Shown here piece after piece: positions 1-52,740 of a stretch of 64,000 bases of DNA (positions are counted from its first letter, which is position 1; each line of letters starts with the position of its first letter). The notes beneath the pieces were generated by a model. It had not been told where the DNA came from, made no database searches, and worked only from the letters and a program-made list of their open reading frames with translations. The position numbers and the translations under genes were made by a program. The stretch is from Psammoneis japonica (taxonomy: Eukaryota): positions 186,001 through 250,000 of the forward strand of contig QPGO01000037.1 of NCBI GenBank assembly GCA_008632985.1. The letters are read 5' to 3'.

Positions 1-648
1 AAACGAGTTTCTCTTCACGAGCTGAATCTCCTTCGCCCTGCGCACCTGATTCTCCTCTGTGAGATGCTTGTTTTCGGTTCTAACCCGATTCAACTCAAGC
101 TTCATTTCCTTCATACTATCCCTGTAACTCTCAACAGCATAGTATGACGGCCTTTTCTTGAGCGCTTGGATGATTTCATCGGCAGTCGACGGATCGCTCG
201 TGGCGATGTCGATAGGGAGGTTTCCCCAGTTGTTCCGAACATCAAGGGAGTCGGGACAAGCAAGAAGAAGCCGGTAGATTACACCATATGATGCGCCATT
301 AGCGCAAGCATGGTGAATGGGGAGTTGTCCATCGGAGTCCTTCTCTCGGACACCGCTTGGATGGGCTTTGATCAAAGCAGCAATGATGGCCTCCGTGGGC
401 TGGTGCATGCACGCTTCATGAATGGGGAGACGCCAAAACCCACCGTACCCTTGGTGCTTCACCCAAATGGATGCCTCTTTTGGATTCGTCTCTAGAATGC
501 AGGCAGTGGTGCCCCACTTCTGAATCTCAATAGCCTTGAAAAGCTTCGTGGAAGCGGCGTCGTAGTCCTGGACGCTAGAGTGGGGGATTTCGGTTGTTTC
601 ACCAAAGGTGGGGCCGAAGCAACCACACGGAAAGAGAAGATCGGTCAT
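1..648 (-). CDS. Ankyrin-repeat-like + coiled-coil protein (copy 1; 3' end runs off the window)
   Basis: ATG at 648. Open frame MTDLLFPCGCFG...WRLPIHEACMHQP...DGQLPIHHACANGA...NNWGNLPIDIA (LPxH ankyrin-like repeats), then a charged helical tail to position 1. Clear paralog of 14218-14898. Absent from the ORF track because no stop falls inside the window. Confidence 0.8.
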   Translation of the reverse strand, partial: MTDLLFPCGCFGPTFGETTEIPHSSVQDYDAASTKLFKAIEIQKWGTTACILETNPKEASIWVKHQGYGGFWRLPIHEACMHQPTEAIIAALIKAHPSGVREKDSDGQLPIHHACANGASYGVIYRLLLACPDSLDVRNNWGNLPIDIATSDPSTADEIIQALKKRPSYYAVESYRDSMKEMKLELNRVRTENKHLTEENQVRRAKEIQLVKRNSF

Positions 649-3489
649 GATAAGGCCTTTCAATTGTCAGGACTCGAGAATTGTGAGACGTTGTGCGCTT
701 ATTTGGAAGCGTGTTCCGAAATTGAATTCGGCGAATGCCAAAAAGTGACGCTGGATTTATTGATTAATCACATATTTATTGGTGAAGCTTTTTATATATC
801 ATTAAATGCCGTGGTAAGGCCGTTGAACGGAGAGTTGGTTAATTAGTTATTCAGCGTTGTAGCGTTTATATTAAAATCAACGGACAAGCTACTGTACGTC
901 GATAATTTTTGGCGATCTTTTCTTTGGGACCATGGAATCCTCATCAGCATCGATCGATTGCTCCTAGAGCTAGCCTGGCACAAAGCCTTGAAAATCTGGT
1001 GGGGCAGGGTTGTCCAGGATCAAAAGTGATGGACAGGCACAAGTGTTGTGCAAACTCAGTCAGCTGCACGTCACAGTTGTTCTCAAGAAAGCGAGGGGAG
1101 GAAAAAACCAGATGCAATGTGGAAAAAGTCCCTTTTGTTGCTCAAGCCATCTGTGCTTTTTAAACCCCCGAGCAATGACATTTAAAATGTTTGCATTGTT
1201 GCTCATGGCTGCAATGTTGTCAATGGAAATTTCACAAATCTGGCAGCTTTGATTGTGACAAAAAAGACTGTGTGGGTTTGCACTGCACATGCTTTGCCCA
1301 CACCCTGTTTGGACTGTGTGTGACTCTGCCAGGTGTGCTGCAAAGCAACAGCTCCTTTGTAATTTTGAACAGCAAAATTTTTTAGATGCTTGGCTTGCTG
1401 TGTTTTCTCTAAGTCTTTTTCTTTGTTGATCTTTGAAAACCTCTTTTTGACTTTTTGGCTCAGAAAAAAGTCTGCAGTGCTGACATGAGAGAAACCCACA
1501 GTTCACATTGTTGAGCTTCGCACAGTGGGCAACTCTTTTAATAAAATTGCTGCCATGCTGTGGGCTAGCTTGCATTGGGTTGCCCTGAAAACAGAAGTTC
1601 TCTGAAACAAAATTGCTCAAGAAGGATCTCGCAAAGCATGGCGCAAAAGGACTGAGAAAGAAGCTGTGCCAAAACTCACAAAACAAAGCTCTGGACAAGG
1701 CCTGAAAAGCCCAGACAATAAAAAAGCAGAGAAAAAAGTGTGAGATGACAAGCAGCAGAATGACAAGCTTCCACAGCAGTGCAGCCTCCAGAACTTTAAA
1801 ATGTTGCAAAAAAAGGCAGGTGATGCACACCAAACACATTGTCAAAACTGCAAACTGTTGAGCTGGCAAGTTAATGCCACCACAAACAAATTCTGTTGGG
1901 GTTCCTGTGCTGTTCAATGTGCTTGCCTTGCAATCTGCAGCAGCCATGGGTTGACAAAGCTGTCAAGAATGCAACTGCAAACTTGCACAATGACAGCTGT
2001 CTGCAGACACCGCATGACAAATCTTGCAAACCAAGTTGTTTTCTCCAAAGAGTGAGAGATGAAAAACAAAGGTGAGAGGCAAATGAAGTGGAGCTCTTCT
2101 CATGGAGAGTTGCTCTGTGAGCCACATCAGCAGTCAAAATGTCTTTTCTTCAACATCTCATCCAGGTGCCTCACAACATCTGACCATTCTGCAACAGCAA
2201 CCAGATTGTCATCAGCCACTTCTGTCACTGCAGCACTGACACATTTTTCAAGTCAGAGTGACACAGATTGGCACACCATCTTGTCCATCAGAGAATCCAA
2301 ACAAATTGTTGAACAAGTTGGCAATTTTTTGTGCACTCTCCACAAAATGCCCAACGTGGGTGCAACAAATCCTCTCCTTTGGAATTCCACCACATGGACC
2401 AACAAGCAGGTCTGCAATCCTCCATCTCATTGATATCTCTTGGCAGTCAAATCAAAGAACTCCATCTGGTGACAAGTCCACTCCAACATTGGCTTGGCTT
2501 GGCCAACATCATGGTAAAAAATGATGCTGGCTTCTTCACACACCACAGACAACACACCATCTGTGTCCTGCACAAGTCCATGACAACTTGTTCCATCTTC
2601 AGGAAGATTGGTGCTGAGCTTCACAAGGGGATGACCACAAGCCCCAAGTTTGTTCATGCCACATGCAGAACAAGTGGCCATTGATTTGACATTCCAAGGC
2701 TGGCCGCAACTTTTCATCCCTGGATCCAGCAATGCACACCTCATCCTTGATGCACTCATTGCTCTTGTCATGTTGTCTGAGCTCACTGCAACATGTGTTG
2801 CCTTGCCTTGCCTTCCAGCAATCTGCCTCTGTTCCATGGTCATGTGTGCATGTGCCAACCATGCTGTGCAAATTCAGCTGATGTGCCCCAATCATCATGC
2901 TGGAAAAACATCTGTGTGGTGCTGACTGGTGGACACATGCTCACAAATCTCTGTGTTCCACAACTCTGTGCCCCCGCGCACATCTGCCATCATGTGGTGG
3001 TGCTTTTTCATCCACAGGACAGTCCACTTTGGTTCAAGGGATGGAAACTACCATGAGCAAACATGTGGCCCTCCCTCAAAACATCATGATGGACACACGG
3101 GTCATCACTCAATTGACTCTTTCTGCTTTCAAACAATTGTTCCACCTTGGTCCTTGCTGCTTGGAATTTCTCATTCTAAATTCCTTCCAACATCACATCC
3201 ATGTCCATTTGCAGCTGCACTCTGCTCTTGTCACATGTTGTCAACATGAATGTCATCTCATGCATGTCTCTCAGGTCTCCAAACTTGTGACAGCAGTTTA
3301 TGGCCACCACTGTGGCATCACATCATTTGGTGCATTTAACTCATCACTGGGTTCACCCACATTGTTGATCTTCTTGCTCACAGTTGACAGCTGTTTGGGA
3401 AGAACAAAATGCTGATGACAGAAATTGTGGTTGCTTGAATCTTAAAAATCCAGACACATCATGGGTTGCAGGAATCTTTCACCCACACT

Positions 3490-4350
3490 CATCAGAATTC
3501 TCATCTGACATCACCAACAGGAAACTTGGACTTGACAGTCCACAATGGCTTGTTTGAGCTTTTGAAACTTGTTGCCCTGCAATGGATCAGTCATGAAGTC
3601 TCCAAGCATGTCATTGGCCAGATGATGCTGTGCTCTGAGATTGCCCTTTTGATCTGGTCAGTGACAAAGAAGTGCAGAATGTTGAGTGCTCTGGTGGGCC
3701 ACTTTTCAGCCCTCCTGCACCCACTCATTTCCAAAACAGTGTGGCACTTCTGTTGTCCTGGCAAAGGACGTTCTTGTCAATTGAATGTCCCTGGTGCTCC
3801 ATGAACAACTTTGTCCACAGAGTCACGGCTGTTGCATCATCACCTTCTGTGAGTTCAGCCTCTGTGCTGCTTCAGGTGTTGAGCTTCCAGCGCTTGAGTT
3901 TGACCCACACTGCTCCATTGCCTGTGGTCACAGTTCCTCCTGTGTGACTCTTAAAATCAGGATGCACCACAAAAGACACTTTCACATGCTGCTTGATGCT
4001 CAGAGGTCCTTTGCACTTAGCACAGCAACTTCATTTTGTGTCCAATTCAAATGCTTGCTGCATTGTGCTGGCTTTGCCAAACCCTTTTTGGTGGGCTCTT
4101 TGTCTCATGTGTGCAAAACACTGCAACAGTGGGGTGTGCATCCATGCAGCCTCTCTTGGAAACAAGTGGTCCCTTGGCCACTCACACACAGAATGTCTTT
4201 GCTTGGTTGGTTGCCAATCTTGTCCCACCTGTGTTGTGCAGCAGCATCTGCACTCTTGATCTCTTCTGGGAAATGATCAATTGTCTTGTGAAGGCAGTTG
4301 GTCATGTTGACTTTCACCTTTCCCTCATGGCTGAAGTCCAAGACCATTGG
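3490..4350 (-). mobile_element. Degenerate Ty1/Copia (CoDi-type) RT C-terminus and RNase H
   Basis: Minus-strand fragments MVLDFSHEGKVKVNMTNCLHKTIDHFPEEIK; KLNT*SSTEAEL..DDATAVTLWTKLFMEHQG; TRALNILHFFVTDQIK..DMLGDFMTDPLQGNKFQKLKQAI. These match the Copia RNase H consensus (SSTEAE, IRYFF..D, D.MTKPL). Frameshifts and stops throughout. Confidence 0.85.
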
Positions 4351-6975
4351 ATCAATCAAAGCTAACCTGCAACAGCATCAACTGGAGCTCGGGATGCGAA
4401 CAAGACAATTTTTCAACAACGACTGTGCCAACTTTCACTGCCTGGTGACTTGCTCTTGGATCAAGGATGTGTGGAAGTTCCTGTGTGAGAACAACATCAA
4501 GATAGAAGTGAACATGCCCACCCTTGTCCTGTGCCAGGAAAATGACAAATTTCTCATCCAAGAGTTCCACAGAGCGGGATTCCACAGAGTGGGATTTAAA
4601 GGGGAAAAAATGGCCCAAATGAACCTTTGTCCACTGTTCCTGTGGGTGAGCACATTGTCTGATGTCACCACAGGCAATGGAGGAAGAGTCCTGAAAAACT
4701 GCTGGAACAGACAACTGCCAATGCACAACCCTCACCACATGGATTTCAATTGGCCGGTGCAAGGCAATCCTTCACAGGATGACTGGAGCGCTGGTGAAGA
4801 GAAGCTTTGGAAACTGTGGTTGGCCTGCAAAACTCAATTGTCCACAGCCCCTTGAGGAAGTGGACAGACAATTTATCAAGTGAATGGCCACACTTCTTGT
4901 CAGCATCAGAGCAACGGGTCTGTGAATGCCTCCCTGATGGCACGTAGAAATGATGCACCCCTGTCCCAGGTCACCCCACTGGAGCCAGTGCTCAATGCTG
5001 CCGCCATGCGGGGGAAACTGACAAAACCCCAGAGAACCTGACAAGAAGAAAGATCTGTGGAAATGACACTGCAACAGTGTCAACAGGCATCCAGCAGGAA
5101 GCAGAGCTCATGGAAGCTTGCCCTCCACAGAACTCCAACAGGCCATCAACAGGCTTGACCCAGATGTCAAGTGGTTGGTGGAAGATTTCAAAAATGATGT
5201 CAATGGTGAATCAATTGCTCAAGCAATTTCTGAAGGGATGGCCACAGCTGCATGCAATGGGTCGTGCTTGAAGAATGGCATGGGAACATTGGCATGGACG
5301 ATGCGGGGCATCCATGATGCACACAAAATCAAGGGATTGAACGTGGCAAGAGGCAACCCTTCCAACATGAATGCTCACCAAGTTGAGATCATTGGACAAC
5401 TTGCCACAGCAGTTGTGACACACGCAGTCTGCAAACTCCACAGTGTGACCCAGCGAGGCATCTCCATTGGCTGTGACAGTGATCAGGCCTTAAAGAACTC
5501 CAACAATCTTGACTGTGAACTCACTGCAAACCACAAACAGTGTGATGCATTGTTGACAGCTCACTCATGGACAAAAAATTGCCAGCAAAATGGTCCATGG
5601 TCAATGTCAAAGGGCATCTAGATGATCATGTTGCTCATGAGGACTTGGATTGCCCCTCTGGATTGAATGTTGACATGGATCTCATGGCCAAAGAACAAAT
5701 GACCAATGCCCGGGCATCCCGACCTGACAGAGAGTGCAAGGAGAGATGTGGTCACTCTGGATTGGGAACAGGAAAGTCAAACCAATGTGACAGACACACT
5801 CCGCTGTGCCGCTGAAAGCAGGAAACTCTTGCAGCAGTGGGTGGACAAGGGAAGTTTCTCTTCAGTTGCCATCAGAGAAATCAATTGGGGCCCCCAAGCA
5901 AAATCAATGTCAGATCTAAAGCAATCCAGACAATGGCGGGTGGCAAAGCATGCATCTGGCTTGTGTGGGGTTGATGAAATGCTGTGCTTGTGGGGCAAAT
6001 CCCCGGTGCAGTCCTGTCCCTGGTGCCTTTTCCCAGTGGAAGACTCAACCCACGTGTTGCGGTGCCAGGTGGAGAGTGCAGTGGAAAAATGGCATGAATC
6101 CCCAGACACACTCCAAGAATGGCTGCGCAAGACAGGAGCCAACCCAGAAATTGTGGAAATCATTCTGCAGAGACTTGGGGAATGGAAAGACAGCACCCCA
6201 ATGCAGCACATCCAAGCACAAGATGTGCTGGTTCAGTGTGCTGTAGACTCCCAAGATTGGACAGGATGGGGCAGATTTGTTGAAGGCTGCCTTTCACTTG
6301 ACTGGAAATTTGCACAGCATGCCTGCTGCCAATGTGGGCAAACTCACTCAGAGTGCAAATCAGCATGGTCAAAACCAGTGGCGCCATGGGAGCTGGCACC
6401 ACTTGTGCAGGTTTCCTCCCACTGACAACCAGCGCACTTTCTGAGTTTGCAAACCCTGGTTTTCCACTTGTGATTTCTCAACTCTCCCACTTGACGGTGA
6501 TTGTTTTAATCACACGGCGGGCCTTGTCATCACTGAACAAGGTGGATGTCTGGGGAGACATTGTGGTTTTCCACTCATGATTTCTCAACCAACTCCAGGA
6601 AACAAGGGCAAAGGTGGGTGAGATCACCTGTTGTCAAGGTCTGCAATGTTTCATGGGATCAATGGGAACACCGCAACAGCACAGTCTGCCCGGCCAGCAC
6701 AATGCTGACAGAAGCACAAACTGAAGCCATTTGTGGTTGGGTTTGAGGTGTGTGAGTTTGCTCTGGGCCCTCAGCAACTTCCACAAATCAACAGGAGGTT
6801 GTTCAAAGGAACCCAGGAGGAGCTGTTGTGCAGCCCCCCGGAATGCCTCCAAGCCTGACTGAACAACATGAAAGCAGCTTGCCAATCTCACCAACAACTG
6901 CAAGTGGAACAACAGCACCATGAATGTGAAATCATGTGGGACTGGCAGCAGAGTGCCAACAATGACATTTGACAT
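4345..6975 (+). mobile_element. 5'-truncated degenerate non-LTR retrotransposon (LINE) with RNase H and CCHC finger
   Basis: SWIKDVWKFL..STLSDVTTGNG (post-RT region); AACNGS..GTLAW..EIIG..IGCDSDQAL..VKGHLDD..LNVDMDLMAK (RNase H); CPWC...EDSTHVLRC (CCHC); QDWTGW..GCLSLDW..WDQWEHRN (typical stramenopile LINE C-terminus). Confidence 0.85.
6335..6590. repeat. ~250 bp insertion in the LINE carrying a 25-bp direct repeat
   Basis: LINE reading frame breaks after AQHACCQ and resumes at NSRKQGQRW. GGTTTTCCACT(TG/CA)TGATTTCTCAAC occurs at 6458-6482 and 6565-6589. Confidence 0.55.
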
Positions 6976-6979
6976 TTAT

Positions 6980-9900
6980 GCTGCGGGGTGGGATGCTTCA
7001 AACTTTGCTGTTCACATTTCATGTGGTCAATCCATGCCAGTCGGGTTACCTCTTCTGGAACTTTGGGCAACGTCAAAGCCATTTGGCAGTGCAACAAGCA
7101 TTGATCTTTGAGCCATTCGCTCATTTGAAGTCCAAGAACATTCCAAGTTCCAAGGTTGTCATGCCTCTTTTCTTCACCATGGCTTCCTCACACATCTTGT
7201 TGAGCCAGCTTGGGATTTTGTCATTTGCTTTTGAGTTCTTGTGGCTCAACCACAGGTTGTCTACATGGAATTGTGCATCATGCTGCTTGCAGTTGATTGG
7301 TCAATTGGCAATGCATGGATCATGTGGATTGAATTTGAACCCAGTTTTTTCAAAGTCCTTGCAAAATTGCTCACAACACAGCAGAGCTGCAACCAACATG
7401 CTGTGTGTGGCTCTGATGACTTGGATGTGGAAGAGGATTCCCTTTCCCTTTTCCATGACCCACACATGGTCTGCACATGTTGTGATCAATCCTCGCTGGC
7501 ATGCCAACCAACACTTCTGTAATCTTCATCATTGTCTGGTCTTCACACTCTTCAGGTTTCAGAATCAAAGTCTGGATGAATGCACTTCATGTGTCAGCAC
7601 TCATCACATCATGCTCTTCCACACAGTGTCAACAATGGCTGCCATTGGTGTTCTTTCCAATGATGCTGTCAGGCTGGTGGCTGAGTCTTCCTTGTTTCCA
7701 GCCATTTGCTGGTTGGTTTTCTGTTGCAAACCATTTTGCTTTTCCATCAGGAACATCAAGACAACCATGGCCTTGGCTCTCTTGGTCAGAGTCATGTGTG
7801 GAGTGGTGGTTGTCTAATCTCCTTCTCTGAGGCATCACACCCCTTCTGATCAAATGCTTTTAGATCTTTGTGTGCAGTGAATGCTGCTGAAGAAAAGAAA
7901 TGCCCTTTCCTGATCAGAGCTGGGTCAATTTTGCACATGAATTGTGCCACCATTCCTGTTTCTGCATCACACTTGATGTCATCCTCTGGGTTGGGAATCA
8001 TGTTTGTTCACAAATGATGACAGTGGTTGAGTCTGTTCTGTTGGCACTTCTCTTTTGCAGTGTCTGCCACTCCTGCAAAACAAAGTTTCTTGTGTTTCTG
8101 AGTGCACCATGGCATCATGGAAGGCTGTGCCTGACCTTGTTCTTCCAGGAGGCATGGCCCTTACCTCATCCTTCAGTTTTTCTCCTTGCCACCTTGCACT
8201 GGGTTTCATTGTCTTTTTCTGGCTCTTTGCCATTCTTGCTTTCTTCTTTGCAGTCCTTGTCATGATTTCATTTTGTTCCCTGTGCTGTTGATTTGGGCTG
8301 GATCCTTCATCTGCTGGGCAGGATCTCATTTGCTTCTTTGAGCTCTTCATCAGAGTCTGCTTTGTCGTCACAGTCTTCATCTTCTGAGTTGGTCATGATG
8401 TTTCTGGTTTCATCTTTGTTTTCTTCATTTGTGTCTTTGTTGTCACTTTTGTCATTGTTGCTTTCCACTCCTGCAGCCCAGTCAGCACCACGCAGGTTGT
8501 CTCTGCATTTGCCTGTAGATTTGACATCTTTGATGCCTTGTGTTGTGGCCATCTTTTTGACTGCTTGCATGTTTGTGTCAGTCAAGGGCACATGGCAGCA
8601 CAATTGCAGGCATTCAAAAGCTTGCCCACCACAATGTGTGGGTTCACAGTGCAGTGACCATTCTCAGGAATGTCAATGCACAGCCACAGATGTGCGCTGT
8701 CAATGCCGCACATGTCCATGGTGTTTGTTGGGTTCTTCTCAATGTGCGACAGGAAAAACTTGCCAAAGGCAAACTCAAAGTGCTTCTTGCAGTCAAGGTT
8801 TCTTCATGGCACAATGGTGTGTGGATTGCAAATGTCAGCAGAAATTCCTTCTTTCCACAGGCACATGTTTGACACGACAGTGTTTTTGATCATGGCTTTT
8901 GTTCACGGTGTGCTTGCATGTCAACTTGGGCAGCCTCTTGCATGGCAGATGGAGCACAGTGGTTTCAGTTTGCTCATTGATGGTCTCAATGCTCCTCTCA
9001 TCTTCAGGAACATGGTCGCTGGTGTTTGCTCACACAAGTTCTAAATTCATGCCATCAGCAACTTTTGCTGGCATTGCCTTGAGCTTGGGAGCACATTCAA
9101 CAAAGCCAACATTGAACAAAGCCATGCTGTGCTGTTGGAGAATCATGTCCAGTGCATTGCTTGCATCAACGTGCTTCTTGGGCCTTGGTCTCACACTCAA
9201 TCAGTGGTTGATCATTTTGTCTGTTGTGCACAGCAATTTGTGCACAGCAATTTGACTCCATGTGCTTCCATGACATCAATGCAAAGGATCACACACCTTT
9301 TCTCTGCTTCTTGTGCATCTCAGGTGGGACAGCCGCAATGTCATTCCTCTCATGGGCACAAGTGCATGCTTGGTTTTGCCTTTTAACATGTGTCTGTTGG
9401 TGGGCCCCATGTGGTCACCATCCTCTGTCCATGCCTTTGGGCATGATGGACAAGAAGTCATCCACCTGGTTTAGATGCAAAAATTGCTTGAAATCCCTCA
9501 CACTGGAGTTGCAGCTTTGCAGCATGGTCTGAGTGCTTGCTTGGTGCTTGCTGCCTCCCTCTTGGTGCAGTCAACAGCAGAGCTCTGTTTCATGGCTAGA
9601 ACCACAGTTCCAAGTGCACTCCTGTGATTGCTCTTTCTCTTGTTGTTTTTCTTTGCCTGACATGCAACTTGCTTTTTTGGAGTTTTTATGTCTGGCTTGG
9701 TGCAAAGGTGCATGGCTCAATCTTGTTGACTCTGAATGCCACAACTTGCTTGCCAGTCTTCTTGTCTGGCAGCCGGAGCTCATCTGTCACTCAGCCATCA
9801 TGTGTCTCATGGCACTTGCTCTTCACATGTCCTTTGGACTTGGGATGTTTTCATCATTGCATTTTCTGTTCCAAGGTTCACACACACCCCATCCAGGTGC

Positions 9901-11440
9901 AGTCTCAGTCCATGGTGCCCACTCTTGTGTTCATGGGTGGATCAATCTTGGTCTTGGCCAGCCACACATTGTGTGCCAATCTCAGCTCACTGCCACACTG
10001 AGGATGGAGCCATTGACAAGGATGACTTCATCTGTCTTGATGTCCAGATTGGCTTGGTTCATGCTTGTTTCTGGTCTCTCTTCCATCAGCTGCAACACAT
10101 GCCATGCAGCTCACTCCTGCCCCAGCTAGAGTGGGCTGATCAGCAAGATTTGGTGGAGTTGGCACTCATGTTGTCACTGTCTGCCAATGGATGGTCATCA
10201 TTCCCCACTCATGTCTGTGCGTGTTTCTGTCTCTCAATGTCCAGTTTCCTTCCAGCAATCTTGAGAGCCAATTGTCACACACAACATTCTTGCTGCAATG
10301 CTTGCAGTCTGTGGACTTGTGGTTTAGTTCACCACAGCAGCAGCACAATGTTCTTTCATCATTCTGGTTGCTCTTTTGGGCATGACTCTGGCCCTTCATG
10401 TTGTTGGACCAGTTGTTGCTGTTGTCATTGTTGTTGTTCCCATTCTTGTTGTCTCTGTGCTTGTTGTTGCTCCTCCTGTGTTGGTCACAAAGATCATCAT
10501 CTTTCTGATGGTTTGGCAGTCCATCCATTGCCTTCTCTGGAGTCCTTAGATGGGTGTCTTCACCCAGACTGCAGTCTTTCACAAAGCTCTTCTTTGAGCT
10601 CTTGCAGCAGCAGTCATTGCTGCTCTTCTCCATGAGCAGGTGTGTTGTCCATGTCTCAAATGATGACTCCTTTGGCTCTTGTTTGCAAGTTGCACTGCCA
10701 TGTTGGTGCTCCATGGTGTTGGGGGTGAATCCATCCAGCATTCTGTCCCCCCCCCCCCCCCCCAGCTCTTTCCTTGTGAGATTTTGCCAATTTTTGAATC
10801 TTGACAAGCAACTTTTCAGCATCTTGCTTGTTCTCTTGTTGCCTCACATCTGGAATGTTCTGCATGGCCTTGTTGGCAAGTGCATGGAATGGGTGTTGAC
10901 AGCTCCAATTGAGTCAAGTGCAGGGAATTGGATCATCTTCAGCAACATGATTGGGTCATTCCCAATGCTGCTGCAGCTGTGGTTGGCTTTTACAGCCACT
11001 CTCTTTTTCATTTGCTTGGGCAGCAGTTGTCTAAAATCTTGGTGAGTGGACTGCTTCACTTTCTTGTGGCAGCCACATTGCTCTGCTTTGCACTGGCATT
11101 CCAGCTCCTTGTCTTCACAGTCATTCTGTTGTGGTGCACTCTGGCAACCTGCAGCTGGTGTGTCTGATGGTGTGGCTGCCACAGATGTTTGTGAGGCGGA
11201 TCATGGGGTCAAAATTGATGCACTTCATGTCTTCTGAAGATCTCACCAAATGCACCCCTTGGCTGCACTCCTTCTGCAAGTGTCAAAGATGATTTTCTCT
11301 CCTTGACATCTTTGAGTGGCACATTGTGAGTGTTGCTGTTCAGTGAAGAAGGATGAAACTTCATCTCAGGCTGAAAGCACTTCTCAGTCTTGGTCTTCAG
11401 CCTTGGTTGTCATTTCTGGCATCTGGAACTCTTCTCTTTT
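6980..11440 (-). mobile_element. Degenerate Ty1/Copia (CoDi-type) gag-pol: gag, zinc knuckle, protease, integrase, RT
   Basis: gag-like KII..LQKECSQGVHLVRSSEDMK (~11300); knuckle CCCCGELNHKSTDC (~10320); protease-like VILVNGSILS (~10020); integrase-position region ~8570-9450; RT GILFHIQVIRATHSMLVAALLCCEQFCKDFEKTGFKFNPHDPCIAN and LGMFLDF (~7130-7450). No LTRs recognisable. Confidence 0.85.
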
Positions 11441-12249
11441 TTAACATCTCCAGTTGCCTCGCAATGTCCCAGATCTAGATGTTCCAACACAAACCATCAC
11501 AAACACAATCATTGACACCACCAAGAAGAGCAGATTGCAGCTTGCTTCTTGTTGCAAAAAGAACTTTGTTTTTTGTGCAGCAATTTTTTGATGTTTTGTG
11601 CAAGCTGAAAATTGGAGCCCCTGACAACACAGTCAGGCTGTTGACTTGCAAAAGAAACCAAGAATGTTGCAGAAAAAAGAAAACAAGAAAACAGCTGAAA
11701 CTCTGCAAGGTGGCGGGTGGGGGTTTGCTGCTGGCCTGTCACACTTCAGTGTGCAGAGAGCAAAAACATGATGCTCATGGGCGCACCCAGTTTTGAGACA
11801 TTTGCAGTCTCCATCAAGATGCAAAGTCATTGAGCAGATGTTGCAAAACCCAAGAGAAAAGAAAAAGACTGCAAGTGTTTGCTGCCATGTGAAGAATTTC
11901 ACACAAAAACAAGAAGAAGAAAGAGAAACCCCAAGAGAGACAAAAGCATTGCCACCAGCAGAGCTGCATCAAGCAGCTGCTGCAAGCTCAAATCACAAGA
12001 CTTGGAAGCAAGACCAAACAAGGAGTGTTGGGGCCTTAACAGCAGCTCTCACAGTCTTGATCCACAGCTGCAATTGTGGGTGGTGTGTGGTGGTGTGTGC
12101 TTTTCTTGAGGTCAACACCAACAAAGCTGGCCAATCTTGTTGCAGCACTGCTCTCTCAACTGTTCAGAGCTTGTGAACAAGCAAAACATGCTTTGTTGCT
12201 GACCAACCCTGCCAGATCATCACAGGTCCTGTTTTCAATTGCGCCTGTT

Positions 12250-13420
12250 GATGCGCGGTGCTTCTGTTGCCAGCACAAATCACTGACAATCAAACCTGCA
12301 TGTGTTTGCCCCCAAATTTGCTTGTTCCTGTCACAAAACAAAGTGCACAACAACAAGCAAAACTGAAGTCACACCCATCATTTCTGCCTGAATCTTCACA
12401 TGGTTGAAGTTCAAGAAGAACCAACCATTCTCTTGTCCTGTGATGTGGTGACTGAAACGTGCAAAACCTGAGGACAATGCTCACAAAGAATGTGGTGCAC
12501 ATGACACAAGAATCAAATGTGCCTTTTTTGGATTTCTTTGGAGCTCTCCAAAAAACTCTTCTGCACAGGAGGCACAAGCTCAGCACACACCATGGCTGAA
12601 GATGAGATGATGAGTGCGACTCTTCCCAACTCTGCCCCTCTTCCACTGCAGCAGCCACCCCACCAGCCACTGCCTCTTCAGCAGCCTCCTCATGCCAAAA
12701 AGCCTCCAAACCCTGGGACAAAATCTCATCTGGCAATGCAAGGATGTGTGGATCTTCCTCTCTTCAGCTCAGCTTTGATGCTGTGTTGGCTGTTTGCAGA
12801 GCTCATCAACCTGTGCACAAAGACTGCCCACCCACAGTGTGCTTTCTCCTGCTTTGACACAGGAGCTTGTGACAAATGCAATGGTGCCACCAGCCAATGG
12901 CAGTGGCAGATCAACTGCACTGAGCATCGCAAAAGAGCCCTGAAATTCACAAGCTCAACTTGCATTCTCCAATGGTCAGAAGAGTGGATTCAGCACACAG
13001 ACAAGCACCACAACAGCAAAGCATTGATGAGAATCTCAAGCATCAGGGTGGTGCACCTTTGGTGCTCAATTGTTGACAAAAAACCCACTCTTCTGCAGCT
13101 GGTGTGCCAAATCATCAGGGTCTGGGATGTGTTGGCTGGGTGGTGCAGAGTGGCATCACTGGAAACTCTGATTCTTGTGAGTTTGCCCACTGGTTTTGCT
13201 GCAAAACAAAGTGCACAACAACCAGCAAAATTGCAGCTGCAACCAACACTTTTCCTTGAATCACCAGGGTGTTGAAGTTGGCAAACCATGTCTCCATGAC
13301 ATGGTGCTTGAAACATGAAATTTGACAATGCCCACAAAGCACAAAAAACTCTTGATTTGTTCAAATGCATGATCTTTGACTTTTTTGGAATTGATGACAA
13401 CCAAAACAAGAGATGCCTTG
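12250..13420 (-). repeat. Diverged tandem duplication (~870 bp period) of a decayed coding segment
   Basis: CAAAACAAAGTGCACAACAAC.AGCAAAA at ~12334 and ~13202. Minus translations align: PKKSK..FQSPHH..LELQP.EDSG..GC..FACCCALCF versus PKKSK..FQAPCH..QLQHPGDSR..GC..FAGCCALCF. Confidence 0.6.
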
Positions 13421-14217
13421 ATCATTGACCAACCTTGCCAGATTTTCATCACCCATCACACACTTGTTGACACACACTTCTGCAGGTGCAAGTGCGGCAC
13501 CATTGGAGAAGACAGATGAGGGCACCTCCTCTTTCCCCAGCTCTGCCTCTGTTTTCCCAGTGCTGCAGCTGCCTGCCCTGTCAAGAGCCCCCAAAGCCCA
13601 CAATGAACTCACCTCTGGCAGCACAAGGATGCAGAGCTCTTCCTCTTCAGCCCAGTTTTGATCTCAAGCCATGTTTGGAGCTCCTTGTCCTTTTGTGCAG
13701 CCTGCAGTGCAATGATGCCCTCAGCCAACGGCAGCAGTGGGTCAATTCAGTCAAGCATTGCACAACACAAGAGCTTTGAAATTCAAAAGCATGCTGCTGT
13801 GCTCAGTTCTAGAAAGATGAAAGCACACTGCACAATTTTAGAAAGTCGGACCAGTTTCAGCACGCAGATGAATGCCACAACAAAGCATTGAGAAAAACCC
13901 AAAGTGTCAGATGTGCGGTTGGCGTGCAAATGGTTGACAAAACCCGCTCATTTCAGCATTTGTTGGGGCTTGGGTTATGGTCACTGGGTGTGCATTGACA
14001 ATGATGAGAGCACCACTTCAATTCGTCCCCATTACTGTCACAACAAATTGCACTTCAACAACCACAACAAGAAAAACTGCAATTACAATTTACTTTGCCC
14101 CATTTTACGGGGTTCAATTAGAACTATTTCCTATGATAATGTTGTGGCGCCTAAAACACGAAATCCAAGAATGCATGTATGTACCATGCAGCACACATAA
14201 GTCAATACGGCGGCACT

Positions 14218-14898
14218 TTACGTGTCCATTTTGGACTGCAAGATTTGCAACAGCTGTTCTTCTTTTTGAGCGTGAAACGAGTTCCTTGCCTTGCTTGCTT
14301 CATTTTCCTTCACGAGATTCTTGTTTTCCATTCTTACTCGGCTCACCTCGCGCTTCATTTCCTTCATACTATCCTGGTAACTTTCCACAGCATAGTACGA
14401 TGGCCTCTTCTTGAGTGCCTGAATGACTTCGTCGGCCGTCGACCGATCGCTTGTGGCAATGTCAATTGGAAAGTTTCCCCAGTTGTTCCGAACATCAAGG
14501 GCGTCAGGAAAGGCAAGAAGAAGCCGGTGGATTGCACCAAATGATGCGCCATTGGCACACGCATGATGAAGAGGAAGCTGGCCATCATTATCTCTCTGTC
14601 TGGCGCCCTCTGGATAGGCTTTGATCAAAGCGGTAATAATGGCCTCAGTGGGCTGGTGAATGCACGCTTCATGAATAGGGAGACGCCAGAACCCTCCGAA
14701 ACCTTGATTTTTCACCCAAATGGATGCGTCTTTTGGATTCGCCTCTAGAATGGAGGCACTTTCATCCCATTTCTGAAGCTCAACTGTCTTGAATAGCTCC
14801 GTGGAAGCGTCATAGTTCTGGACACGATCTTGAGGGAACTCGAAGGTTTCTCCGAAGGTAGAGCCGATGCAGCCAAACGGAAAGAGAAGATCGGTCAT
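14218..14898 (-). CDS. Ankyrin-repeat-like + coiled-coil protein (copy 2)
   Basis: 226-aa ORF with WRLPIHEAC, DGQLPLHHAC and NWGNFPIDIA. Paralog of 1-648. A possible 71-nt GTAAAG..TTTTAG intron at 14221-14151 could add a short last exon. Confidence 0.8.
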   Translation of the reverse strand: MTDLLFPFGCIGSTFGETFEFPQDRVQNYDASTELFKTVELQKWDESASILEANPKDASIWVKNQGFGGFWRLPIHEACIHQPTEAIITALIKAYPEGARQRDNDGQLPLHHACANGASFGAIHRLLLAFPDALDVRNNWGNFPIDIATSDRSTADEVIQALKKRPSYYAVESYQDSMKEMKREVSRVRMENKNLVKENEASKARNSFHAQKEEQLLQILQSKMDT

Positions 14899-15894
14899 GA
14901 GGAAGGCTTTTCAATCGTCAAGACTTTTGAGAATTGTGAGTATCGATGGGGGTTTCGAAAATCAATTCGGCGAACAAGCGAACTGGGGGCGACTTGTGTG
15001 AACGCCAAAAAGTGAGCCTGGTATTCGCCAATTAATTGCATATACGTGCCTTTATTTTATATATGATTTCTGAAAACCCTATAATCAAGTCGCTCACGGA
15101 AGCGTTGATCATTTCATAATCCTAAATGATAGACGTTTTCATACTCTTTTTCTCTCGCCTTACCGGCGCCCAACGGACGAGGACCGTTGCTTTCAATGCA
15201 GTTTTATAAAGCCTGAATAATTCAAATACAGATTCCCGACACATTCATAATCCTTGATTCCTTAGGATATTTATGCTCAATCTTGGCTAAGTAGACTCTA
15301 CGCGGGATGTACGTCCTCTTTCTTGATAGTGAAAAAGTGCTTTCCGTGTCGAGGAGTCGCGCTCGCCCCACGCCGCGCCGCCATCCACACTTTCACCACA
15401 AAGCCGCGGCAATCTCTGGGCAACACACGTTTTCCTCCTGGCGTCTTTCTGGTACCGTATGATTCAGACGCTTCTTTCACTTATCTTTTTTGGGAAGTTA
15501 TCAACAGACAACAATGCTTCGATCATCGGCAAACCTTGCTGCGGATGATGTAACAATAACATGCGTAAGTGCATTCAATACACGAGATGAGTTTTTTCCT
15601 GACCTGGCATATACTATTCATTGATGTATTCGCTATAAAATTTTCGTACTGGTTTGTACTTCTATGAACTTATTTGCCATGAAGACGAATATTCTTCCGT
15701 TACTAACGTCCAATCAAGGTGGAATTTTTTGCTCGTCTTGGATGGCGATGGACCGGCTTCCGATTCGCCAATGAACGTTCTTGGTGCTTTTCCTGTTCCA
15801 TCCATTATCTTTAATTGCTATCTTATCCTCGCCATGAGAATCTCTGACAGCTCTTTTGTATTTTCGTCTACGACACTTTTGTTACTCACTACAG

Positions 15895-17182
15895 AGGGTT
15901 CGTCGGTCAAAGTTTGCCGTGAACCCGACCTTTGGAGAGCCTCTCGAAATGTCAATCACGATGAGATATTGGCACCCTGAAGAGACATATCCTGCTGATA
16001 TCGACACAGCTACATTATCACATAGCAGATCAACCTCGAATTCCAATTTAATAGCTCTACTCGTCGGAGACGCGGAACAACATGATCCAGAGTTGGTCCT
16101 TTGTCCGCTGCTAGAGAGCCCGCTAGGAGGGGGCGGTGGTGGCCCGATTAGGCTGAGTGATCGCTTTCAATCCTTCGGAACAAATGATTCTCCAAGTTAT
16201 GGATCAGCCCCAAACTCGAGAAACCCGTCTGTCTGTCGTGGTAGACAATCTATTACATCCATAAGCAGCTCCAAACAACCGCGGAGCAGAAACTCATCCA
16301 GACAACGTAGTCGGAATGCATCCGGGATGTTTTCGACCGAGGACTTTAATCTAAAGCCTCCTGTTCCAATGCGTCAGAGGCCCTCTGTGGAGGAGAAACC
16401 CAAAGAGAATGAGTCTTATGTGATTTCTCTGAGCGATATTCTTGTTGTGGACGACTTTTCCAAACCGACTGGTGGCGTTTCTCGAAACGATAGCCGCATG
16501 ACTGTGACGACGCTCAACAGTGGATTTTTCGAATTTAGCTTTCAAAGCGAAATGACACACGACCTTTTGCTGGCCTTTCTAAAGGCCAACCTGAGCGAGG
16601 AGCGCATCACGGACGGCGTTGTCACTACCGCGGCAGAAGAGACCGATATTGCTCAACCCGCCATTTCCGCCTGCTGCAGCAAGGAGCTGTTTGATGCAGA
16701 AACACTGACTGCGAAACGAATGGAAGAGCGAGTTAAAAAGGAGGGAATGACCGAACGACTTCGAAGAAGGTTTTCACATTTTGCTACAAGAGTTGGTGAA
16801 CGTGAGTACCGCCTGTTGAATATGAGCGACGCTCTGGTGTTGATTGTGATTCTGTGCTTCGCTGAACGCCCTGCATTATTGTCTTTTGCCTCAAACAGTA
16901 TCAAATGACTTTGCCGACTGTGCATGCGGTCGTCAGGTTGCCCCTGACGATGTCAGCAAGCGACAAACTCCGGACAGACATTTTGAATTCCCGGCTGACT
17001 TAGAGCTATCCTACAGCCACCGTCATTTAGAAATGAGCCAAAGCAACATGCAAGCGACTGAGATTCAAAACAACAACAACAACAATAAGGGCCTATCGGA
17101 TGGAACTCCGGCGGTGGAAAAGATCAGTTTTGAAGACGACTCTGTATCCCCCGAAACTGAACCGGAACACGCCTTTGTATAG
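15895..17182 (+). CDS. Hypothetical protein (Ser/Arg-rich), spliced; 5' exon unresolved
   Basis: Long ORF 15856-16908. Intron GTGAGT..AACAG at 16802-16898 joins in frame (VGE-L-SNDFADCAC) to a last exon ending at 17182. Probable acceptor CTACAG at ~15894. Confidence 0.65.
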
Positions 17183-17535
17183 AAAGCGTGTTGCCGGTTC
17201 TGTCTTCTGCGTACTGTACCGTGTATTGAATCATCCGAGGACGAAGCGTCGATATGGCCCTTCGTAACCTCTGTGTCAGGATTATGATAATATTAGAGAA
17301 ACCGGCTATTATTACTCTTTTTCTCTGTAATGTCGAGTAAGAATAGTGTAAGGTGAGGTAGAATATCGAAAACGCTGTCTCTTGCAGTTGACGAGAATAA
17401 CCAAGAACGAGCTCAGATTGCAGTTAAAAAATATTTGTAGCCCCCACTGAAAGGTCGGGAACGAAATGGCAAACAAAGTGCCTTCTTCTTCATTGCTCAA
17501 TCGATGTGTTTTAAATCAACAATAGCATTCTTACC

Positions 17536-17736
17536 TCAGTTGTGAAGATACAGCTGGACCGCAACCCAATGTATGATGCAACCAAAAAGTGCCGGTACCG
17601 CCGTCAGAGGCAGCAAAACCAGAGGAGTCGAGTTGCTGCCTCCAATCAACGCATAAAACGCCGACGCTCCAAGAAGGAGAGCACACAGAATGAGTACCAC
17701 ACCTACGGCTGGAACTGTTCTGTTCCTCTCGTCCAT
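17536..17736 (-). CDS. PIGY: PIG-Y/Eri1-like small subunit of GPI-GlcNAc transferase
   Basis: 66 aa, two hydrophobic helices. LLPLTAVP..IHWVAVQLYLHN resembles the PIG-Y C-terminus LLLPITIP..WTWMGIKLFRHN. Confidence 0.65.
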   Translation of the reverse strand: MDERNRTVPAVGVVLILCALLLGASAFYALIGGSNSTPLVLLPLTAVPALFGCIIHWVAVQLYLHN

Positions 17737-18148
17737 TGCATGTCGTCAGAAAGAGCGCCGTAGCCGCTGTGCTTCACCTATCATCGGCAACAGTTTTAGA
17801 CTAAACGTCAAACACAGCTTTAGCCGAGCTGACAGCCAACGTGCGTCGTGCGCGCGATGCACCAGCCAATCAATCAATCAAAGCATGCAGTACCATACGT
17901 ACATGCGTCTGGCCGAGCATCCTTTCGAACGCGGCTTCCCGCTCTCTTCCACCTTGACCTTCGTCCTGAAAAGTGAAGCAGAGCGTTTTGTTACACATCT
18001 TCATCACCATGGGAGCAGCAATCAAGGTGAAATCATTTTGGAAAGTAAGCAGCTTTGTGCAGGTTGTGGCACTATCGGTACTAATGACGGACCGCTGCAT
18101 GGAAGGAACAGGATTGAGCTAGGTGGAATGTACAGCACTCGCGTTTCT

Positions 18149-19387
18149 CTATTTACTCAACTCCCGTGGTGGTCCCAGCTGTTTCCTTGCCGCAGAGTCT
18201 GCAATGTTCTGGTACTCCGCCAAAGTATTCCACGGATGATCGATGCACCGATTGGAGTCTACGGATGCCATGTCGCACAAGAGCAATCGAGTTGCTTCTA
18301 CTGTACTGATTTCCCTCCATTTGATGGGATGCCTTCTTAGCTGAAGCCCACTTCTCGGTGAGCGCTCTCCATCGTTTTCGCTTTTTGATGAATTTTCGTG
18401 TCTTTGAGATAAAAACGCTAACGCCTCTTGACTGAGCTGCACCCGAGGAGGTCCACCCGCAGCTTCCAATGGAATTTGACGCTGCAGTTTTCTTGCCTGA
18501 GACCAAGTACCATCGATTATAATTACGTCCCATTTGCCATTGTGATAAAAATCGTCTGAATCGAGCTGTTCAGTGGCTCTCGTAGCTTTTGTGTTTTCGT
18601 AGTATTCTTTGTCCAGCTCTTCAAATGTTCGAGCATCGTCAGCTGGGAAAAGGACAAGGCATTTTCTTCTCTCCGCGACATTTTTGAATGATTGTGGTTT
18701 GCAGTCTAGGCCCATGGCCGCGTTTAATTCTGCCATTGACTCTTGATACGTTGCATCTATTCCTCCGACAACAAGACGGCATTTGTCCGGAAAGGCTCTT
18801 AGAATGAGTTTTGCCGTGTCCACCACAAGCCCGACCTCCTTGTGGTGCATGAGCAAAAAAATTCGTCCGACATTTCGAGGTAGCTTTTCAATCGGCGGGC
18901 ACGTATGGCAAACACAGTGGGCTTTTTGCAACCAACAGCTCGTACAGTCCCCACTGCGATCCAACGCCTGCAAACGCGTATACAAGTTTCGAGCGACTCC
19001 GAGATTCTGTCGTTCCCTAGGATCGACGCTGAGAATGTCTTTGCTGAATGCTTCATTTCCATGGTTGTGGAGTACACGATCTACTGTCTCCTTGACTTCA
19101 CATATGAATCTTGATTCGGATTTCTCCTGCATTTTCTGGACCTGCATCGAGTACTTCTTGCCTGAACTATGCCTATGGCTTTGTCCAAAGCCTCCTATGA
19201 ATGCGCAGGTAACCACGGGATTCTCCCGTGAAGATGTTATTTTTGGAGGCATGTTTGACAAAGAGCCAATACATTCACTCGCTCTTTCGAAACGCAACAT
19301 CGACCCAGCCACTCTCTTTGGCATCGACGCCATGATGAACAAGCAAATCAATCCAATTCCACTGTGACTTAGACGCGAAAAGCTCAT
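18149..19387 (-). CDS. DTW-domain protein (tRNA-uridine aminocarboxypropyltransferase-like)
   Basis: CTSCWLQKAHCVC zinc motif, LMHHKE..DTAKLI, LVLFP, IIIDGTWSQARKL, ISTVEA. The N-terminal extension may be a targeting peptide. Confidence 0.9.
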   Translation of the reverse strand: MSFSRLSHSGIGLICLFIMASMPKRVAGSMLRFERASECIGSLSNMPPKITSSRENPVVTCAFIGGFGQSHRHSSGKKYSMQVQKMQEKSESRFICEVKETVDRVLHNHGNEAFSKDILSVDPRERQNLGVARNLYTRLQALDRSGDCTSCWLQKAHCVCHTCPPIEKLPRNVGRIFLLMHHKEVGLVVDTAKLILRAFPDKCRLVVGGIDATYQESMAELNAAMGLDCKPQSFKNVAERRKCLVLFPADDARTFEELDKEYYENTKATRATEQLDSDDFYHNGKWDVIIIDGTWSQARKLQRQIPLEAAGGPPRVQLSQEALAFLSQRHENSSKSENDGERSPRSGLQLRRHPIKWREISTVEATRLLLCDMASVDSNRCIDHPWNTLAEYQNIADSAARKQLGPPRELSK

Positions 19388-19617
19388 TTGTCGAAGTCGA
19401 ACTCTACTTGATACAAGTGTCCGTCATGAATTCACTCAAGCACAAGATCGACAGCAAAAATGTAGATAGCGCATAGCGCATGTCCAACGAAGCAAGCATG
19501 GTGTGTTTCTTGATTTGTGGAAATTGGAAAAATTCCAAAATTGTGTCAAATTTGAAAATTTCAAATTGTGCGTTGCAGCGAGCATGGTCCTTTCTCTGCT
19601 CTAGCTCTAGCACTGTA

Positions 19618-19657
19618 GAGAGGAGAGAGAGAGAGAGAGAGTAGAGAGAGTGAGAGG
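19618..19657. repeat. Imperfect (GA)n microsatellite
   Basis: gagaggagagagagagagagagagtagagagagtgagag. Confidence 0.85.
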
Positions 19658-19689
19658 GCCCCATTGCTGCTCAAGACAACCTCTGTCTC

Positions 19690-28870: not shown

Positions 28871-29126
28871 TTGATGGACGGCGACGGAAAATTCAATCAA
28901 ATCGAGCGTGCATCCGTCAGTCAGCCGGCAGTCCTGGTTGGAGCACCCGGAGGTTGATTCGATCGCGCGCTTGCGGGCTCGGCCGGGAGATAAACAAATC
29001 AGAAACGACAAACTCAAAAAACTGAAAAAACGAGCACTGCCCCACAACAACAACAACAGAGAAACAAAGAGATCAGACCATGAAGACACCACCGATTGAT
29101 GTCAGTCTCTCATAGAACGTTTCGCC

Positions 29127-30557: not shown

Positions 30558-30908
30558 TCATGCAGAAACTTTCACAACGAAGAGGCTGAGATGCCAACGC
30601 ACAACATTCTGCAGCGACAAACTCCTGCTTGCTGCTGATCGATGCGAATAGTTACTTCTCCGCCCATGCAAACGCTGGAAGACACGAGGATCGAAGTCGC
30701 TCTTCAGACCATCCCAGTAGAGAGCATTTATATCCGATTTGTTCTCCGGACTCAACTTGGAACACGCAAATTTGCTTGAGACCCTCCTCGTCAACACATC
30801 GTATTCTTGCGGCATGATGCGTGTAATTTCATGCATGCCTGGGCTCATCAAAAGACAGAGAAGGACAAGAAAGGTGACAAGTCTTGTGGCATGGCTGGCA
30901 TTCTTCAC
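30558..30908 (-). pseudogene. Truncated gene fragment with N-terminal signal anchor
   Basis: RLVTFLVLLCLLM hydrophobic stretch, then coding-like sequence with no long open frame downstream. Confidence 0.3.
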
Positions 30909-39633: not shown

Positions 39634-39881
39634 CCGCGAGCGAGACAGACATACACTGAGATCAATCTCAATTCTCAATCGTGTTGTCGCGGCGATGCCA
39701 AAAGAGAGTCGTTGCGAACATCTTCTTTACTGTACCATATCATGTCACATACCAAAGTTTCATTACACCCAATCTCGAGCACACGAGGTAAGAAGCGTTA
39801 GTCGATTGGTATTTGCGGTAGGCAAGCTGAGAAAGCTAACGTCGTTTGTTTCCTGGGCGTTTCGTTCAGGCAGGACTGACA

Positions 39882-52479: not shown

Positions 52480-52740
52480 CATCTCTCTGACATGACTGGG
52501 TTTCTTGGCCCAGCCACCCCACCTGCAAAAACAAGAATACCATCTCTGTGACAGTGCGAGTGCTCTGTTGTCTTGGGGTGGCCTTGGATGACTTGATCGG
52601 GTCCCAGAGAATGCAACACCAACAATGATGGGAAGCAAAGGCCTTGTCTTGTGTCAGTGTGGCACCTTGTCTCTCTGGCATGACTGGGTTTGGCCCATCC
52701 AAGAACTGGAATGACTGGGTTTGGACTAGCCAAGAACCGC
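52480..52740. repeat. Short diverged direct repeats
   Basis: ATGACTGGGTTT..GG(C/A)C..CC at ~52492, ~52680 and ~52711. Confidence 0.6.

Follow-up and report, generated by a model that had tools for sequence, protein, structure and literature searches.

In mutation-accumulation lines of the chlorarachniophyte Bigelowiella natans, two integrated viral regions (an integrated giant virus and a virophage, in which TpA makes up 3.3% and 9.2% of dinucleotides) mutate ~1000 times faster, almost exclusively by A→G/T→C changes that all fall at TpA, and TpA-poor coding sequences are enriched in reverse transcriptase and DDE domains; the preprint proposes, without proof, an ADAT2-like adenine deaminase, and states that ADAR favours a 5′ U (Mettrop et al., bioRxiv 10.64898/2026.01.13.699255). 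Phaeodactylum lacking DNMT5a loses its DNA methylation, and young transposons become de-repressed (PMC9998398); deamination and TpA do not come up in the available text of that article. Fungal repeat-induced point mutation (RIP) riddles bounded mobile DNA with context-specific transitions until coding capacity is lost, acting by C→T mainly at CpA, which raises TpA and lowers GC content. APOBEC3 and ADAR, which are animal families, disable retroelements by context-specific deamination of complementary DNA (cDNA) and double-stranded RNA, respectively. Here, a 64,000-bp stretch of the Psammoneis japonica genome (contig QPGO01000037.1, positions 186,001 to 250,000; hereafter the window) was found to contain six bounded domains, with retroelement relics recognisable in two of them, in which CpG and TpA are both severely depleted in favour of TpG and CpA, a pattern for which the TpA-only hypermutation of B. 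natans is the closest precedent.

Simple segmentation combined with sliding windows identified six sharply bounded domains that together occupy 28,023 bp of the window (Table 1). Pooled, the domains have observed/expected (o/e) ratios of 0.14 for CpG, 0.06 for TpA, 1.78 for TpG and 1.80 for CpA, against 0.99, 0.55, 1.16 and 1.21, respectively, in the other 35,977 bp. The GC content is equal inside the domains and in the rest of the window (0.47-0.50), due to loss of CG lowering GC while loss of TA raises it. Individual domains range from 0.11 to 0.18 for CpG, from 0.02 to 0.14 for TpA and from 1.56 to 1.97 for TpG and CpA, and 1-kb windows between approximately positions 1000 and 13500 show CpG o/e of 0.02-0.22 and TpA o/e of 0.00-0.14, with TpG and CpA reaching 1.75-2.1. 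At the domain edges, the transition is completed within 100-200 bp. An earlier note on this DNA, made from the sequence alone, had called CG and TA both scarce in 965..13990 and in five other bounded domains; sliding windows and segmentation agree with it.

DNA outside the domains is compositionally normal: CpG o/e is 0.82-1.35 and TpA o/e 0.52-1.10 in two introns and in all 12 stretches devoid of long open reading frames (ORFs), indicating that neutral DNA of this genome is not depleted by default and that the process is aimed at the islands. The two introns are probable ones, recognised as segments that contigs of a second sequencing run (X2) skip in the manner of spliced transcripts; X2 contigs map only to 15.3-19.4 kb and none map to domain 1, which is not evidence that domain 1 is silent. 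An ankyrin-repeat gene is present as a direct duplicate whose two copies flank domain 1 and share 81% identity over 630 bp. Both copies have normal dinucleotide content (34 and 31 CG, 17 and 15 TA), and the pair is an internal control in which duplication has occurred without hypermutation.

The missing dinucleotides are accounted for by their transition products. Relative to the rest of the window, the domains contain 48.8 fewer CG and 33.6 fewer TA per kb (sum -82.4), and 40.1 more TG and 35.7 more CA per kb (sum +75.8), with the remaining dinucleotides shifting by at most about 10 per kb. If the ancestral composition was close to that of the remaining sequence, additional TG and CA match 92% of the lost CG and TA. 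Loss of TA also removes the stop codons TAA and TAG, and the domains consequently carry many long spurious ORFs: 226 overlapping stop-to-stop ORFs of at least 70 amino acids are present on both strands across the six domains.

Fungal RIP was considered as the source of this signature and rejected, since TpA (o/e 0.06) is removed rather than made, CpA (o/e 1.80) is gained rather than consumed, and GC (0.47) is as in the flanks; the earlier note had excluded RIP on the same ground of TpA removal. RIP is in addition triggered by duplication, whereas the 630-bp ankyrin-repeat duplicate is unmutated here, although at 81% identity it may lie below the homology threshold.

The domains appear to be islands of degenerate long terminal repeat (LTR) retrotransposon DNA, with Ty1/copia relics recognisable in two of the six, weakly so in domain 1. 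In domain 5, exhaustive phmmer searching with a 224-amino acid ORF gives 7421 proteins with E values of 1e-3 or lower, and the best matches (50-61% identity) cover ~105 amino acids near the C-terminus of ~1400-amino acid polyproteins, identifying the ORF as a Ty1/copia relic. When profiles built from 26 full-length polyproteins and from 80 environmental reverse transcriptase (RT)-RNase H segments were searched against the six-frame translation of the window, this relic alone was significant. Domain 1 holds nested degenerate copia-type relics, in which a probable gag zinc-knuckle relic lies upstream of a probable RT relic on the same strand, and the gag, RT and RNase H-side pieces follow copia order on the minus strand, each with a weak match; for the RT relic these are a hmmsearch i-Evalue of 0.53 and tblastn E values of 0.055-4 to 11 polyproteins. 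A Pfam scan of ORFs of at least 70 amino acids gave no recognisable content for domains 2, 3, 4 and 6, and no credible match for any of the 226 ORFs in the six domains (98 of them in domain 1). The only Pfam matches in this set, to MerB (E 0.009) and DUF3172 (E 0.005), are weak and were rejected as chance. Neither the RT relic, read through its stops as X, nor the 224-amino acid ORF returned a Pfam match at E≤1, and a word-indexed protein search with the RT read-through and longer lengths yielded 94 candidates of which none was significant. Self-comparison of the window revealed no LTR pair and no repeat common to different domains. Elsewhere in the genome, domain 1 is repeated: its word depth in a public sequencing run (X1, described below) is 64-444, compared with ~63 in the flanks, and among the 258 X1 contigs that map to positions 1-20000, 141 are 90-95% alike and 65 are 95-99% alike.

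The domain 5 relic allows the direction of TA loss to be read. Five alignment columns are at least 60% Tyr among 149 homologs, and the relic reads C, H, H, W and C at these positions. Trp at the fourth is common to the closest homologs and native to the subfamily, leaving four true Tyr columns, all four of which have become His or Cys (codons TGT, CAC, CAT and TGT). Polarity was assessed in a codon alignment of 80 environmental copia loci, using sites at which at least 60% of 46 compositionally intact sequences agree. None of the four ancestral TA sites is retained in the relic (two read TG and two read CA), yet five of six ancestral TG sites and all three ancestral CA sites are kept, showing that the change is directional. 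In a leave-one-out comparison, the intact relatives retain TA in 276 of 314 cells and show TG or CA in 13 (Fisher's test against the relic, p = 5.7e-6). Conserved CG sites are uninformative here because Arg is encoded by AGR in all relics. The replacement of conserved retroelement Tyr by His or Cys had been read in the earlier note from six peptide motifs, all of which are present in the window (Table 1). It is solid for RYLKGT→RHLKGT and SRTGY→SRTGC, whereas the RT motifs align weakly (i-Evalue 0.53; tblastn E of at least 0.055); in the RT relic, the three consensus Tyr positions are occupied by H, C and H, the last of them within the vyvDD box of the relatives' profile (FHVDN in the relic). 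One of the six motifs, CCCCG, has a second occurrence outside the domains.

Loss of TA depends on the neighbouring base. As the earlier note had observed, the TAs that survive in the domains are mostly in TTA, TAA or CTAG contexts (99 of 121, compared with 604 of 1365 outside the domains). With the rest of the window as reference, survival of xTAy tetranucleotides follows a per-strand multiplicative model on the base 3′ of the A (goodness-of-fit p = 0.13; p = 2e-34 against uniform loss), with survival factors of 0.82 for TAA, 0.50 for TAG, 0.15 for TAC and 0.08 for TAT. The rule is thus TAY >> TAG > TAA: the preferred target, TAY, is the Tyr codon, and the stop codons TAA and TAG are hit least. 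Survival of CpG is highest between G/C flanks (GCGG, 0.34) and lowest in TCGA (0.04). No strand-coherent runs of TG or CA beyond controls were detected in the two large domains (z = -0.75 and -1.34), and this, together with the equality of TG and CA products, indicates that the events are single and that both strands are hit alike. TA is palindromic, and sequence alone therefore cannot tell A from T as the attacked base.

TA loss and CpG loss can be separated in space. Past the right-hand limit of the CpG-depleted block in domain 3, TA remains scarce for a further ~550 bp, giving a zone with near-normal CpG and a single TA (Table 1; Poisson P = 1e-7 for at most one TA at the normal TpA level of the window), and a weaker TA-only case is present near the end of domain 5. 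Within domain 1 the two depletions vary independently, with CpG o/e ~0.2 and TpA ~0.05 at 4.5-6.5 kb and CpG ~0.03 and TpA ~0.07 at 9.5-10.5 kb. Among the 80 environmental copia loci, seven combine strong CpG depletion (o/e <0.35) with normal TpA and three show both depletions; TpA depletion by itself does not occur. The TA-only zone shows that TA loss is separable from CpG decay. The earlier note had inferred that a second, targeted A:T→G:C process acts at TpA beside CpG decay, and the direction, mass balance, context rule and separability described here, and the B. natans precedent, support this.

The three environmental loci depleted in both dinucleotides (L001, L002 and L070, from metagenome contigs) have CpG o/e of 0.10-0.20 and TpA o/e of 0.04-0.18, and two of them, L001 and L002, are the closest of the 80 loci to the domain 5 relic (62-64% amino acid identity). 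At the DNA level, the relic shares 58-63% identity with L001, L002 and L070, too distant for a DNA-level substitution spectrum. Their reading frames are long and open (325, 384 and 429 amino acids for L001, L002 and L070, respectively), indicating that the process is not limited to dead copies. The TAs that they retain fall largely in Tyr codons (6 of 9, 9 of 12 and 5 of 5, compared with 31 of 118 in the intact comparator L003), and Arg is encoded by AGR in 13 of 14, 16 of 18 and 15 of 16 cases. On the basis of these sequences, L001, L002 and L070 seem to be live elements exposed to the same mutation pressure, which has cleared TA and CG elsewhere while selection preserved essential Tyr. Among 150 public homologs, four are tyrosine-free (P0193, P0125, P0247 and P0231). 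P0193, a predicted copia polyprotein of 2061 amino acids, reads Cys in 10, His in five and Trp in one of its 16 conserved Tyr columns, while retaining 15 of its 16 conserved His, all nine Cys, all 16 Trp and 18 of the 24 Arg; three control polyproteins retain 10-14 of 15 Tyr. P0193 is a putative example of a fast, TA-specific hit on an otherwise young copy.

The signature is present in sequencing reads. Run X1 is one public sample whose library is not on record, and is possibly the data of the assembly itself. It holds a fraction of 0.91 of the words sampled from positions 9000-17000, and X1 contigs of 3.6-7.7 kb with a word depth of ~63 cover domain 1 and its flanks, differing from the window at 7, 15 and 16 letters in 3616, 3690 and 7704 bases, respectively (~99.6-99.8% identity). 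Words at a depth of ~63 require accurate reads, confirming that the signature is present in the reads. Of the 78 differences between X1 and the window, 40 are listed, and 34 of these rows represent 32 events in domain 1. These 32 listed events comprise three in which a TA of the window reads TG or CA in X1, three CG of the window that read CA, four CA or TG that read TA, three CA that read CG, two double CA→TG changes and 17 others; changes between CG/TA and TG/CA, including the two doubles, thus make up 15 of the 32. Six of the 32 listed events fall on TA or CG positions of the window, which constitute 2.1% of positions (binomial p = 5e-5). These differences fit continuing in-place loss after the split of two haplotypes or strains.

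Table 1 Coordinates of the domains, relics, motifs and other features of the window
Feature	Coordinates	Strand	Size	Composition or evidence
Domain 1	1048-13998		12,951 bp	82 CG (CpG o/e 0.11), 54 TA (TpA o/e 0.06), TpG 1.84, CpA 1.86
Domain 2	19618-20700		1,083 bp	CpG o/e 0.18, TpA o/e 0.14
Domain 3	26501-28757		2,257 bp	CpG o/e 0.16, TpA o/e 0.02 (3 TA)
Domain 4	30869-31817		949 bp	CpG o/e 0.17, TpA o/e 0.09
Domain 5	51851-61109		9,259 bp	74 CG (CpG o/e 0.14), 47 TA (TpA o/e 0.07); best-preserved copia relic
Domain 6	62477-64000		at least 1,524 bp	CpG o/e 0.16, TpA o/e 0.02; runs off the window end
TA-only zone, right edge of domain 3	28450-29000			29 CG (o/e 0.91), 1 TA (o/e 0.03), TG+CA 1.34
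Weaker TA-only case	60800-61150			CpG o/e 0.72, TpA o/e 0.14
ORF containing the domain 5 relic	53893-54564	-	224 aa	phmmer matches to polyproteins
Ty1/copia polyprotein relic, C-terminal (RNase H side)	54130-54459	-		profile search, 150 bits
Probable copia RT relic, stop-broken	7211-7414	-		RATHSML..GFKFNPHDPC..FHVDN
Probable gag zinc-knuckle relic, CCCCGELNHKSTDC	10304-10474	-		weak tblastn, E 0.013-2.4
Probable RNase H-side relic, KSHTGG..SSTEAEL	3695-3958	-		weak tblastn, E 2-4, 12 matches
Motif NPHDPC	7313-7330	-
Motif RATHSML	7394-7414	-
Motif ILHFF	3666-3680	-
Motif CCCCG	10331-10345	-
Motif RHLKGT	54271-54288	-
Motif SRTGC	54139-54153	-
Second CCCCG	29041-29055			outside the domains
Ankyrin-repeat gene, copy A	61-687	-
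Ankyrin-repeat gene, copy B	14314-14940	-
Probable intron	15565-15894			skipped by X2 contigs
Probable intron	17325-17534			skipped by X2 contigs
Arf-family GTPase fused to YqcI/YcgG domain	23150-24493	+
ORF with weak M64-type peptidase match	36179-38767	-	862 aa	E 9.7e-9
ORF with three tandem silicon-transporter domains	39840-44372	+	1511 aa	Pfam Silic_transp, 1636.8 bits, 3 stretches

As far as the available text of the preprint goes, the domains resemble the hot regions of B. natans in that TpA is converted to TpG or CpA according to strand, in bounded regions of foreign or mobile origin, with long-term TpA depletion and a gain of CpA and TpG. They differ in host (a diatom, hence a stramenopile, rather than a rhizarian), in substrate (transposon islands rather than viral regions) and in extent, since plenty of TpA is left in B. 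natans whereas the islands here are near saturation (o/e 0.02-0.14); mutation rates were measured there and are only inferred here. The words 'diatom', 'CpG', 'context', 'flanking' and 'trinucleotide' are absent from the available preprint text, whereas CpG loss and the TAY > TAG > TAA rule are both seen here. TpA hypermutation was measured directly in B. natans, and a process of the kind inferred in the earlier note therefore exists. No report of TpA depletion or hypermutation in diatom transposons was found in the full-text literature searched, which covered sources outside subscription journals.

Two context-specific transition processes, CpG decay and A:T→G:C hypermutation at TpA, probably ran near completion on these LTR-retrotransposon islands. 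The first would most likely be deamination of 5-methylcytosine in CG-methylated transposons, converting CG to TG or CA. Given the DNMT5a result in Phaeodactylum, this interpretation suggests itself for the CpG loss, and the domains share with such decay the CG→TG/CA change, the confinement to transposon DNA and the stronger effect on A/T-flanked CpG; it differs in explaining only half of the signature, as it cannot remove TpA. The second process would convert TA to TG or CA on each strand independently in the order TAY >> TAG > TAA, most plausibly by enzymatic deamination of adenine to hypoxanthine, which is read as G, with a requirement for a 5′ T. A scan of 16 window ORFs revealed no deaminase gene. 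As TAY is the best target and stops are removed rather than made, both the Tyr→His/Cys changes and the long spurious ORFs follow. Dead copies would be mutated to saturation, while living lineages under selection would keep TA only where Tyr is needed.

Several points weigh against this reading. The polarity test rests on four sites in one relic, and the Tyr changes in the RT relic, with an alignment i-Evalue of 0.53, are suggestive only. The mass balance takes the ancestral composition to have been like that of the rest of the window, in place of an intact copy of the same family. Part of the surviving TAs in YTAR context could be newly made rather than resistant. X1 is a single sample that may be the source of the assembly, and some of its differences from the window could be assembly errors. 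Finally, the elements may have been TA- and CG-poor at insertion, in which case part of the composition of the relics was inherited.

The last of these points can be extended into an account without any mutator, in which element lineages evolved to be CG- and TA-poor under selection, for example to escape CpG/UpA recognition of their RNA, and the relics simply kept that composition. The depleted open frames of L001, L002 and L070, with TA almost only in Tyr codons and Arg mostly as AGR, would be expected from such a history, and the depth of domain 1 words in X1, up to seven times that of single-copy sequence, indicates that depleted sequence was multiplied or is shared between copies. Selection of this kind does not explain why Tyr residues that are functionally needed are gone from the domain 5 relic (none of four left), nor why Tyr is missing from all 16 of its conserved columns in P0193, in which other conserved residues persist. 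The domain frames are full of stops, with no credible Pfam match in 226 ORFs, and the lost TA and CG reappear as TG and CA where selection would permit any replacement. TA loss also continues for 550 bp beyond the CpG-depleted block, and o/e values of 0.02-0.06 are far below the suppression that selection is known to drive in viruses. Inherited avoidance on its own therefore has a small, though appreciable, probability.

The attacked base may alternatively be thymine. Modification or oxidation of the thymine in TpA, for example to 5-hydroxymethyl- or 5-formyl-uracil through a TET/JBP-type enzyme, followed by mispairing with G, would produce T→C changes, and the sequence evidence is equally compatible with T→C at R-T-A and with A→G at T-A-Y. 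5-Formyluracil does mispair with G, and some protists carry modified thymine at TpA. There is no evidence of such an enzyme or base in this organism, and the sole experimental precedent, in its available text, reads its data as adenine deamination, which is itself unproven there. Thymine chemistry of this type is accordingly held to be unlikely.

The earlier note had named as one candidate a by-product of CpG decay, in which T:G mismatches recruit repair with a DNA polymerase eta (Pol eta)-type enzyme that makes A→G errors at WA motifs. In the second phase of somatic hypermutation, A:T mutations likewise follow C deamination, and TA is among the hot motifs. The depletions of CG and TA are indeed co-extensive over most of all six domains. 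In contrast to the expectation from such errors, AA, the other half of WA, is not depleted (86.0 per kb in the domains, compared with 76.8 outside), and the zone at the edge of domain 3 lost TA where CpG is intact, although long repair tracts from the neighbouring block are possible. Seven of the 80 environmental loci are CpG-poor with normal TpA, though these are from other organisms, and the TAY > TAG > TAA rule is unlike the Pol eta pattern. The intact AA and the TA-only zone make an origin in Pol eta improbable, and this candidate is not upheld.

Editing during the retrotransposition cycle, in which an ADAR- or APOBEC-like activity alters the RNA or cDNA intermediate and the changes are fixed at insertion, would suit the retroelement nature of the affected sequences and the presence of the signature in selected element lineages. 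APOBEC3 and ADAR act on one strand and leave strand-biased tracts, whereas here the strands are equal (TG and CA o/e of 1.84 and 1.86 in domain 1) and strand-coherent runs are absent. ADAR favours a 3′ G, whereas the favoured 3′ neighbour here is a pyrimidine. TA and CG sites are over-represented among the listed positions where X1 contigs of single-copy depth depart from the window, and the TA-only zone adjoins the CpG-depleted block instead of falling within it, leaving this route highly improbable. An artefact of sequencing or assembly (systematic miscalls at modified bases, for example) has a next to negligible probability: X1 and the window do differ by single-base insertions and a few substitutions, and the X1 library type is not on record, but X1 contigs at a depth of ~63 reproduce domain 1 at ~99.6-99.8% identity, flanking genes in the same contigs are normal, and the same signature is found in unrelated metagenome contigs and public proteins.

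Other genes in the window are listed in Table 1. The 1511-amino acid ORF encodes three tandem silicon-transporter (SIT) domains, which indicate a diatom origin of the window; its internal repeats are ~65-68% identical at the DNA level, and a triple SIT polypeptide is unusual. The fusion of an Arf-family GTPase to a YqcI/YcgG domain has an architecture that recurs in many proteins of diatoms and marine eukaryotes, with its best named relatives in the diatoms Triceratium, Odontella, Epithemia and Cylindrotheca at 43-49% identity and other, unnamed matches reaching no more than 52-56%. The 862-amino acid ORF with a weak match to M64-type peptidases contains a long Pro/Thr-rich repeat region and gave false tblastn matches to polyprotein linkers.

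Islands that lack Pfam matches and carry many long false ORFs mislead gene and repeat annotation and inflate gene predictions, and a dual dinucleotide index provides a cheap means of finding them. For base editing, an enzyme acting on A in DNA at a defined motif would be of interest. Relative to the available text of the B. natans preprint, the features that are new here are the near-saturation of transposon islands, the three-letter TAY target rule, the co-occurrence of TpA loss with CpG decay and its spatial separability from it, and the counter-signature in living elements, which keep TA only as Tyr codons. Before that 2026 preprint, which concerns a single rhizarian alga, the literature searched contained no mutational genome defence with A:T→G:C chemistry.

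The hypermutation reading given above, if true, would mean that diatoms, which are major marine primary producers, possess a mutational genome defence based on A:T→G:C change. A broader proposal, which we put forward only tentatively, is that diatoms, like Bigelowiella, may own an enzyme-driven, domain-targeted editing activity that converts A to G at T-A-Y on both strands of transposon chromatin. Together with CpG decay, this would amount to a two-pronged, RIP-like killing of mobile DNA that wipes out Tyr codons, including that of the Tyr beside the catalytic Asp-Asp of RT (vyvDD→FHVDN), without making TAA or TAG stops, and to which elements may have answered by purging TA except in essential Tyr codons. 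The presence of such activity in both Stramenopila and Rhizaria would then point to an old defence of the Stramenopila-Alveolata-Rhizaria (SAR) lineage.

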